Source: Azolla caroliniana (Eukaryota > Plantae > Polypodiophyta). From it: DNA of 64,000 nt. Of this stretch, positions 44,992 through 47,900 are shown piece by piece. Location: contig JBHGNT010000020.1 of assembly GCA_043228905.1 (NCBI GenBank), positions 5,270,001-5,334,000 of the forward strand. Reading direction: 5' to 3'. A model generated the notes under the pieces. The model saw only the letters and a list, made by a program, of their open reading frames with translations. It had not been told where the DNA came from and made no database searches. How positions within the stretch are numbered: position 1 is the first letter of the stretch; each line of letters starts with the position of its first letter. The position numbers and the translations under genes were made by a program.

Positions 44992-47900
44992 TGTTGTCGG
45001 TTCTGTACAACAAACAACGCAAACAGAAAATAGAGTAAGTGTGGACTTACACAATGCAAGCTCTAATGGAAAGCTTTATTGCTTTGTTCTCTGAGATACA
45101 ATGCACAACCAGTTCATCTCTCTGTTACTCGTCACTCTATACAATGTTAGGTATTCTCTTATATACTAAGCCCTAACTTATTGACGAGTTCACACTCAGA
45201 CGGATACAACTTGAAAGGAGTCAGCCTTTTATGCCAACAAACTCCCCTGTAAAAGGACTACTCTTTCTTGCATGTACAAGAATTTGGGTTATCTCACCCG
45301 TAAGCCTAGATTACAAAATTGATCTAACTTTATATGTTACAAGTAAGACGACATGCAACCGAGTCGGCAGATGTATAGGATGTGTCGGTATTGTTTCGAT
45401 CAGATCCTACCTTCTGCTCCTCGTTCGGCTTTCTTTTGTTCGGTCGCTTGTCATAGCCCCATTTTCGTCCGTAGTGTTCCGAAGCGTAGATCTGGGAGTG
45501 GCTTCGTTATGCAATCGGTGATGTTCACCTCCGTGTCGATCTTCCGGACTTCCAGTTTCTTTTCATTTACGAGCTCCCGGATATGATGATACTGCACCTC
45601 AATGTGCTTCATCTTTGCATGATAGACAGGATTGTTGATGAGGTGTATTGTGCTTTGTGAGTTGCACTAGATGGTTGGCATTGGTTGGTCGTTTCGTCTT
45701 GTAGTTTCGAAGTCCGCAGTTAGTCGGTGCAGCCAGATTGCTTCCTTCGTTGCTTCCGATGCTGCTATGTACTCGGCTTCTATGGTAGACAGAGTCGTGC
45801 ACTCTTGAAGTTTCGACCTCCATGATATCGCCCCGCCGCCATAGGTGAAGATGTTGCCTGATGTTGATTTCTGATTATCTGCATTTTCGACATAGTCAGA
45901 ATCGGTGTAGCCTTCGACTTCGGCTGAGGTTGTCAGTCCGAAAATCAGCTGGCATCCAAGGTTCCTTATAGATATCTACGGATGTGCTTGACAGCCTCCC
46001 AATGCTTCTTTCCTGGGTTTGACATGTACCGACTGACCACCCCTACGGCATAGGGTCGGGTCGCCACCATTGTGTACATGATACTTCCTACTTCCAATGC
46101 GTAGGGTATCTTTCCATTAAGTTCTCTCTCCTTGTCCGTCGAAGGAGAGTCTCTGTCCGATATTCCGATCGACGTCGGAAGCGGTGTCGGTGCTGGCTTC
46201 ACATTCTCCATGTTGAAGCGCTTCAACCCCTTAGCTCAGCTTCAGCTTACCGATCTTTGCTTGATTGCTTCCTCCAATCAACATGTCATCGACGTATAAG
46301 ATCAGATAGATCCTGGACTCGTCGACCAGTTGTCGACCATACATGCATGGGTCGGAGTTTGATCTATTGTATCCAAGCTATCGTATGTAGGAGTCAAACT
46401 TCTAGTACCACATTCTCGATGCTTGGTTTAGGCCATATAGACTTTTCTTTGGTCGACATACGAGGTGATTGTCCTCCCCCGTCGCCGTGAAGCTTGCCGG
46501 TTGAGACATGTATATGTCTTCTTCCATATCTCCATGTAAAAATGTCGCCTTTACATCCATCTACTCGAGCTCTAGATTTTCTGTCGCCACGACTCTTAGT
46601 AGGGCTCGGACAGTAGTCATCTTGACTATTGGTGAGAATATCTCGTCGTAGTCGACCCTGTATTCCTGTTTAAATCCTTTCGTGACCAGCCAAGCTTTGT
46701 ACTTGGGTTTCTCTGAGTCGGATACATACTTGTATGTAGTGTATCGGAAAACCCATTTGCAGGGTAGCGGCTTCCTTCTAGTTAGTAGTTCGACCAGCTC
46801 TTGTCATGATATGGCAAGACTCGAACCCATGACCTTATGCTACATGGGTCGAGCTCTTACCATTAGACTATGCATTGTAATATGAAAGATATTATTTTCA
46901 TTTAATTTTTATTATAGGAAATTGATGTATATTCTAGAATTCTCTGGAACATTCTAGAAACTTCAGGAGTACTCCTGAGAACACTATAAAAGGAGGCACA
47001 AGGCATTATTTCGAACCAAATCGGTTCAACGCCAATCTTAAGCCTCCTAGCTACTATTGTATACTCTCTTCACACAATATATATCTTTTATCATCATTCT
47101 CTCTCACCCTTTCTCTCTCTCTCTCACTCACTCTCTCACACTCACTCTTTCTTTCTCTTGAGATTCTACACCTCTCTTAGTACTAATCCTCATCTTTTAG
47201 TACTAATTCCTTCTTTATCTTAGTACTGGTCCTAACAATTTGAACCAATTTCCTCTTCCTTCCTCCTCTTCCTTTTATCTTCTTACATATTCCTTTCATA
47301 CTAATCCTCTTATCCTCCCTAGTAAAATGGAAACTATTAGCTCTCAGGAATACCAATCTATTTTCTCGGAGCTCCAGTGCTTAAAAGAGAAATTTCTAGC
47401 ACTAGAACAAGAAAAGCACTGTTTGTTGGGGGATCTTCAACAAATAGTGCTGGAAAAACAACAACACGGGGAGTTGACGTTACGTGTACAACAACTCGAA
47501 GCGACTATCGTATCATTACAACAACAAGGATCAAGCACTCAAGGGATTCACAACAAAACCAAGATCGGTCTTCCTGCAAAATTTGATGGGACTCGATCAC
47601 AGTTTAGAGGTTTTTTGAATCAGGTACGTTTAGTGATACAAATGCATCCTTCTCGATATCCCACCGATGCATCACGAGTGGGACTAGTAGGCACTCTCCT
47701 TAGTGCCCCAACGTTAGCATGGTTCGCTCCATTGTTGGAAAAGGAATCTCCATTACTAAACAATTTTGAAGAATTTATAAGTGAGTTTAAGGCCTATTTT
47801 GGAGATATTGACAGCATAAGGACTACAATCAACAAAATCTGGCGATTACGCCAAGGTGACCGTCCAACCTCCGGATACGCTGCAGATTTCCGCCTACTCG

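Follow-up and report, generated by a model that had tools for sequence, protein, structure and literature searches.

The window, a 64,000-nucleotide stretch of Azolla caroliniana DNA, contains at 46802-52379 a decayed full-length chromovirus of 5.6 kb with gag and pol domains. Its 5′ LTR (46802-47237, plus strand, 436 bp) and 3′ LTR (51946-52379, plus strand, 434 bp) both run from TG to CA and are 92% identical, and the element is flanked by a 5-bp target-site duplication with one mismatch (46797-46801 and 52380-52384). The gag reading frame extends from stop to stop at 47207-48316 on the plus strand (PF03732, PF19259). It is followed on the same strand by pol fragments (48463-51950), interrupted by stops and frame shifts, that include protease-like and RT-like pieces recognised by eye, RNase H, integrase, SH3 and a chromodomain; the gag, RNase H, integrase, SH3 and Chromo domains were detected by Pfam. 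A polypurine tract (PPT) lies at 51933-51945 (plus strand). The domains stand in Ty3/gypsy order with the chromodomain last, and the Chromo match (PF00385, E 2.7e-14) agrees with the label ‘chromovirus’ given in the preliminary description of this DNA. We take the chromodomain to belong to group I, as it has Y, W and Y at what are presumably the aromatic-cage positions (by eye, alignment A1).

The element appears to prime its own reverse transcription. A TATA box (46985-46992, plus strand), the putative Pol II promoter, is located 32-33 nt upstream of the self-primer, both here and in 11 relatives. The self-primer (47018-47029, plus strand), which would be the 5′ end of the genomic RNA, is complementary at 11 of 12 nt to the primer-binding site (PBS; 47240-47251, plus strand); the latter is a self-priming site and not a tRNA site, and it co-varies with the self-primer across relatives in four sequence types. 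We find this layout of TATA box, self-primer and PBS, with primer and PBS changing together, in 11 of the 13 relatives in which gag follows the LTR; our script found no self-primer for the LTR at 1149 or for loci L028 and L077. Self-priming and an aromatic-cage chromodomain mark the Tcn1 clade among plant chromoviruses (PMC6317226), and, judged from its sequence, the element is a self-priming chromovirus of the Tcn1 type. The best named RNase H matches were to Rhizopus (52-55%) and the fern Adiantum (57%). The self-primer at 47018-47029 and those of four relatives (L025, L031, L041 and L044) also resemble a sense-strand B box at 8-9 of 10 positions by eye, in two registers, a resemblance that may be due to chance.

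The U3 region of the 5′ LTR carries, on the minus strand at 46812-46873, an outward-reading module with the features of a tRNA-gene promoter. The minus-strand sequence quoted in the preliminary description was located at 46873-46812, with the LTR start (46802) 10 nt away, and the claim that it holds an A box and a B box at tRNA spacing is correct: the A box (46860-46870, minus strand; TRGYNNANNGG, tRNA positions 8-19) and the B box (46818-46827, minus strand; GGTTCRANYC, tRNA positions 52-61) each match the consensus with 0 mismatches at a spacing of 32 nt. A variable-loop-like AGGTC (46831-46835, minus strand; tRNA positions 44-48) extends the conserved sequence beyond the textbook B box. The module thus has what defines a type 2 Pol III promoter, the invariant B-box bases and an A box within the reported range of 30-67 bp (PMC11811891), with G10 poorly kept. 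Its assignment to U3 was likewise right, in that the TATA box at 46985-46992 and the inferred start at ∼47018 lie downstream; the module is 150-200 bp upstream of that start on the opposite strand, and because its boxes face outward, it cannot make the genomic RNA.

Related copies occur elsewhere in the window, as had been claimed for the 3′ LTR (identical) and for two sister LTRs (diverged). The copy in the 3′ LTR (51956-52017, minus strand) is identical and points toward the PPT, with the first T4 at 51909; nucleotides 1-84 of the two LTRs agree at 84 of 84 positions. Outside a CT repeat, the LTRs differ at 21 sites, with 0 in the first 84 nt (P ∼0.004 if that stretch is fixed in advance, and 0.02 for the 62-nt module), but these are values for a single pair chosen post hoc and we excluded them from the evidence. 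Both sister copies were located, one at about 15047-15107 (plus strand, its element being on the minus strand) with a T4 directly after the B box, and one at about 15361-15420 (plus strand) with a longer spacer between the boxes. The sister LTRs themselves stand in tandem at 14657-15460 (minus strand), each preceded by a PPT and only ∼80% alike, the first being cut short. A further module is found at 1198-1252 (minus strand), near the start (∼1149) of another LTR-like repeat upstream of a Ty3-type gag. A strict scan for A and B boxes returned 5 pairs in the window, compared to 0.135 expected from 200 local Markov shuffles (maximum 2); the five comprise both LTRs, both sisters and one pair in another family. 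The same scan detected no A/B module in three Copia LTR pairs (6245-11211, 22695-33355; one nested in another), and these provide negatives within the window.

Several other features of the window bear a likeness to the module. A second, unrelated Gypsy-like family has antisense A/B units at tRNA spacing (33943-33995, 35501-35553 and 16618-16660, minus strand) in a repeated non-coding region upstream of a DUF4100 frame (34010-34924); the copy at 16618 has a deletion between the boxes. The stretch 255-330 consists of a PPT and then an LTR start, in which a degenerate antisense B box lies at 5 nt from the edge; it is probably part of another member of the family. At 61380-61480 (minus strand) lies a free-standing SINE-like head, in which the half with the B box is duplicated in tandem and an A box is also present; it had no match among the fetched loci. 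The window also contains, at 3646-4445, an array of ∼45-54-nt repeats with a common core.

To see how far the module extends among relatives, we used a chromodomain search of metagenome contigs that was blind to the module, taking the best 80 of 143 confirmed loci. A usable match was present in 79 of the 80; 16 were dropped (13 with no recognised LTR start, 3 too short), and the remaining 63 were grouped with the window LTR at 75% identity, which gave 23 clusters. In 18 of the 23, the first 120 nt of the LTR contain A and B boxes in antisense orientation, compared to a mean of 0.1 in shuffles (maximum 1), 2 of 23 on the sense strand and 0 of 21 in the next 120 nt. The chromodomains of the module-bearing clusters are 41-93% identical. 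The spacing of the boxes is 32-33 nt in 14 of the 18 clusters, while the distance from the B box to the LTR edge varies from 16 to 63 nt across clusters; since the distance to the edge floats and the spacing stays, the module is not an end site for integrase. The strict pattern occurred 48 times in 223 kb of these loci: 45 times antisense at LTR edges, once at a deleted LTR edge and twice in true tRNA genes.

The five clusters that fail the box test are two outgroups and three with damaged or weak in-group LTRs, and the two clusters without any trace of the module stand apart on the chromodomain tree (100/99 support). Five of the dropped loci were viewed; the module is present in three and absent from L038 and L059, both in-group. 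Ten more distant chromoviruses whose LTR start could be recognised, the two trace-free clusters among them, likewise have no module in the first 120 nt; thus chromodomain targeting can do without it. The inheritance of the module as an integral part of the LTR, claimed at the outset, is borne out by the 18 clusters. We reject a SINE insertion, as the module spans these clusters and no tail separates it from the LTR edge, and a pattern of few copies with their own target-site duplication or poly-A tail, which we looked for, was not what we found. Contigs covered the module in six of six runs, coded as six organisms, and a 96-nt stretch was matched by 750-1,509 assembled contigs in three runs and by 142 in a fourth, figures that are not copy numbers. 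Run X14 was taken to be probably of DNA. The breadth of hosts is uncertain because a single accession series, with 16 assemblies, supplied 78 of the 80 loci and may represent one campaign on related hosts. Among viral contigs, 87 pattern matches yielded 0 confirmed cases. Matches to a chromovirus chromodomain, at 30-51%, also came from seventeen contigs in bacterial or archaeal assemblies (L081-L097), the majority of which are short and likely to be eukaryotic contamination.

The module is not a functional tRNA gene, a candidate we rejected for want of a cloverleaf with paired stems and an anticodon. ARAGORN found 0 tRNAs in the window, and Rfam returned no tRNA match for the copy at 46812-46873 at E ≤10; the sister copy at 15047-15107 matches RF00005 with 22.6 bits (E 0.0067), under the 29-bit cut-off. 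The preliminary description had the module ending in CCA, a detail that needs correction, as this is not a tRNA 3′ end. In this subfamily, the stretch after the B box is shorter than in its relatives, which places the CCA 3-5 nt past the box and not at positions 74-76; undeleted relatives have C at position 71 (13 of 16), and their positions 74-76 are not CCA. Instead, the CCA is one arm of a hairpin in which its partner is the A-box TGG. This hairpin, an imperfect inverted repeat that overlaps the module (46812-46862), is subfamily-specific.

Selection might act on such a U3 hairpin, or on pairing of U3 with the 5′ end of the RNA, with the boxes being incidental. Indeed, the window subfamily folds strongly (z −4.8) and the sister LTR reaches z −3.6, in a different register. 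Across the branch, however, only 2 of the 23 clusters have z below −4 and most lie near 0, and we reject a branch-wide hairpin on this ground; pairing with the RNA 5′ end is rejected as well, because the U3 motif is unchanged in L025, L031 and L041 while the self-primer differs. We consider this explanation very improbable and largely refuted at the level of the branch, although it may still be relevant within the window subfamily.

Conservation within the module is concentrated in the promoter bases and does not extend to the RNA fold. When clusters are anchored on the B box, the information per column is 1.34 bits for the B box (a value that anchoring inflates), 1.06 for the nine bases before it, corresponding to the variable loop and T stem, 0.49 for the A-box zone, 0.33 for the anticodon arm and 0.23 for the upstream U3; the boxes are thus far better kept than the flanking U3, which had been proposed as a check on the module. 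The AGGTC at positions 44-48 is retained in 14-17 of 18 clusters per position under the same anchoring. When the anchor is instead placed on the variable and D loops, without the B box, 16 of the 23 clusters align, and G53, T54, T55, C56 and A58 are invariant in all 16. Position 57 is A in 7 and G in 9, position 59 is variable, position 60 is T in 14 and C in 2, and C61 is found in 12, such that the variation of positions 53-61 follows the degeneracy of the B-box consensus. Of the A-box bases, T8, A14, G18 and G19 are each kept in 13-14 of the 16 clusters and G10 in 4. The D, anticodon, T and acceptor stems pair at 0.61, 0.45, 0.65 and 0.41, compared to 0.63, 0.43, 0.63 and 0.36 for permuted columns; the largest gap is that of the acceptor stem (0.41 versus 0.36, sd 0.03), and no stem rises above its permuted controls. 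Conservation of a cloverleaf is therefore rejected. Within the family, variants at a frequency of at least 3% number 0 at 46802-46834 and 12 at 46835-46859 in four runs coded as four organisms, in data where a common one-base indel leaves the A box thinly covered and contigs favour well-matched copies. We conclude that the module is a real, branch-wide and selected feature.

This pattern bears on whether the module is simply what remains of a tRNA or SINE captured long ago, and is today either neutral or used on the sense strand as the site of a Pol II transcription factor. Common descent alone would leave some similarity, other tRNA-like repeats are present in the host, and the module is absent or damaged in some in-group LTRs. 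Against this, the invariant B-box bases survive exactly and the spacing is retained, while the anticodon arm is scrambled to near background, and we judge a relic to be quite improbable.

The module could also resemble the U3 site of Ty3, being in the RNA of the element the complement of the T and D arms of a host tRNA, which it would bind just after the PPT. Its place and orientation match those of the Ty3 site (PMC5371799), and the conserved block of ∼18 contiguous nt (positions 44-61) is wider than a textbook B box. However, these elements self-prime, with primer and PBS co-varying; positions 49-51 and 59 vary, so that no single tRNA fits; G53, T54 and T55 show none of the changes that wobble would allow in 16 clusters; and the longest exact matches to the two tRNA genes compared are 5-11 nt. 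We therefore hold pairing with a tRNA to be improbable.

A stronger alternative, although still an unlikely one, is that Pol III actively transcribes the module and that the short antisense RNA so made is what matters: made from the 3′ LTR, the RNA would cover U3 and in some families the PPT, damping or steering replication or silencing, and made from the 5′ LTR, it would read into the flank. Conservation of the spacing and of the 3′ half of the A box is more than a pure B-box site needs; the 40 nt upstream average 80% AT; and the LTRs of foamy viruses contain active Pol III units (PMC3993851). In 10 of 19 clusters, the LTR includes a T4 run, which in five of them stands 11-12 nt after the B box, the point at which tRNA genes terminate, but T4 is common in AT-rich DNA and the count of 10 is uncorrected for chance. 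Moreover, the subfamily of the window element lacks a T4 inside the LTR, and the sequence, fold and end point of the RNA are all unconserved; the varying position of the terminator itself argues against a conserved RNA.

The 3′ end of the module in longer relatives bears on its origin. There, C71 and, in five clusters, a T4 at 11-12 nt past the B box resemble the terminator and last bases of a tRNA gene, which would favour capture of gene DNA over copying of a mature tRNA. We think it very probable that the module derives from a tRNA gene. The donor was not identified by comparison with two tRNA genes. Among the 48 loci examined with ARAGORN, the only true tRNA genes were two in L021, outside the element; in this one case, tRNA-Asn(GTT) at 552-627 and tRNA-Thr(AGT) at 831-906 lie ∼150-500 bp upstream of a truncated element of the branch.

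How retrotransposons aimed at heterochromatin continue to be transcribed there is an open question, and the anti-silencing tricks known so far are mostly proteins or stress-responsive enhancers. We propose that the ancestor of this Tcn1-type branch captured a tRNA gene, or the tRNA-derived head of a SINE, backwards into the outer U3, and that its descendants retained the promoter bases and the spacing of the boxes and lost the RNA fold. The module would then act as DNA bound by TFIIIC and TFIIIB, and the bound complex, sitting between the flanking chromatin and the TATA box, would be a barrier that protects the Pol II promoter of the element; any outward RNA, of ∼65-120 nt, would be a by-product. 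Retention of bases and spacing, with loss of the sequence, fold and end of the RNA, is the pattern expected of DNA read by protein, for which TFIIIC is the evident candidate. From the sequence, we assign a probability of about 0.45 to the reading that a captured tRNA-gene promoter has been kept for binding TFIIIC and TFIIIB with a role as a chromatin barrier. As to its parts, the module is probably bound by TFIIIC, and the barrier role for the Pol II promoter of the element is a tentative proposal, with odds somewhat short of even.

Work in other systems gives this reading a basis. In yeast, tRNA genes and ETC sites are barriers, and stronger ones with TFIIIB bound (PMC3395662). The group I chromodomain of MAGGY binds H3K9me2/3 (PMC3350952); if the chromodomain of these elements steers integration into H3K9-methylated chromatin, a built-in barrier would pay there. 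Through its τB part, TFIIIC is anchored at the B box and surrounds the DNA upstream of it (PMC11811891), an enclosure that may account for the conserved AGGTC. Similarly, yeast ETC sites have a 10-base 3′ extension (PMC3395662), and an extension of this kind may account for C71. Several observations run against a barrier: only 4 of 16 clusters keep G10 of the A box; the AGGTC is as conserved as the B box despite lying outside it, and base-specific TFIIIC contacts are reported only inside the B box in the part of the structural account consulted (PMC11811891); and the module is missing from two in-group loci (L038 and L059) and from the ten distant chromoviruses. Our search of the literature yielded no evidence of TFIIIC barriers in plants. 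The conserved B box at a fixed place makes the hypothesis testable by a single base. More speculatively, and we hold this to be doubtful, the retrotransposons of non-seed plants that target heterochromatin may carry their own barrier of the TFIIIC/Pol III kind at the edge of the LTR, in effect a tRNA-gene insulator that moves with the element, would keep it transcribable where it has landed and would spread thousands of TFIIIC sites across the genome; the antisense unit of the second, unrelated Gypsy family would then be a case of convergence. If the proposal is true, these plant genomes hold a large hidden pool of TFIIIC sites.

The preliminary description had named no known case of tRNA-derived modules in the LTRs of autonomous chromoviruses. 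This stands as far as autonomous elements are concerned, since a literature search that had most subscription journals outside its scope found no description of a tRNA-type LTR module in autonomous plant elements; it requires amendment in that tRNA-derived LTR segments have been published for the non-autonomous Helenus TRIMs (PMC10886601). Among known chromoviruses, the Tcn1 clade (Tf1/Sushi group) shares with the window element self-priming, an aromatic-cage chromodomain, LTRs of ∼440 bp and a 5-bp target-site duplication, and it has relatives in non-seed plants and fungi; the excerpted accounts of this clade mention no tRNA-like U3 module (PMC6317226, PMC2864245, PMC3350952), and for the Selaginella Tcn1 LTR, the excerpt mentions only TATA and CAAT boxes (PMC2864245).

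Other systems share single properties with the module. Ty3, with its bipartite PBS, has U3 sequence complementary to the T and D arms of a tRNA, but Ty3 is tRNA-primed and matches one tRNA, whereas the window branch self-primes and varies like a protein-binding consensus (PMC5371799). The Pol III miRNA cassettes of foamy viruses likewise bring A and B boxes into the LTRs of retroelements that are autonomous; they form defined miRNA hairpins, while the window branch conserves no RNA fold (PMC3993851). The tRNA-gene and ETC barriers of yeast are B-box DNA acting through bound TFIIIC and not through RNA, as the module may do, but they are fixed host sites of shown function, whereas the module travels in a retrotransposon, keeps its A box and is a candidate barrier only (PMC3395662). 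Cassandra and Ajax TRIMs resemble the module in having a Pol III promoter within the LTR; unlike the window element, they are non-autonomous and their promoters are 5S-derived, and that of Cassandra drives its own RNA (PMC10886601).

The nearest parallel is with the Helenus TRIMs (TRIMp3; Kojima 2024), in which a tRNA-derived LTR segment conserves A and B boxes and mostly forms no functional tRNA (PMC10886601). Both systems thus have tRNA-derived A/B boxes inside the LTR, and one Helenus family comes from Selaginella. Helenus elements are non-coding, 311-1263 bp long and tRNA-primed, whereas the window element is 5.6 kb with gag-pol, and it and its relatives self-prime and keep the TATA/Pol II layout. 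In four Helenus entries (one from Selaginella and three wasp LTRs), the boxes are in the sense orientation, so that Pol III would copy the element, which the account does not state as a rule; the module in the window is antisense and reads outward (PMC10886601). We rejected membership in Helenus for the window element because it is coding, 5.6 kb long and self-priming and has antisense boxes. The same account, in the part consulted, expects that autonomous partners do not share the Helenus LTR and remarks on a partial likeness to tRNA in ‘not a few’ of the LTRs in Repbase, which it leaves undescribed (PMC10886601); the module may already be in Repbase in this way. If our proposal is true, Pol III promoters in LTRs extend from non-coding TRIMs to autonomous elements, in reverse orientation.
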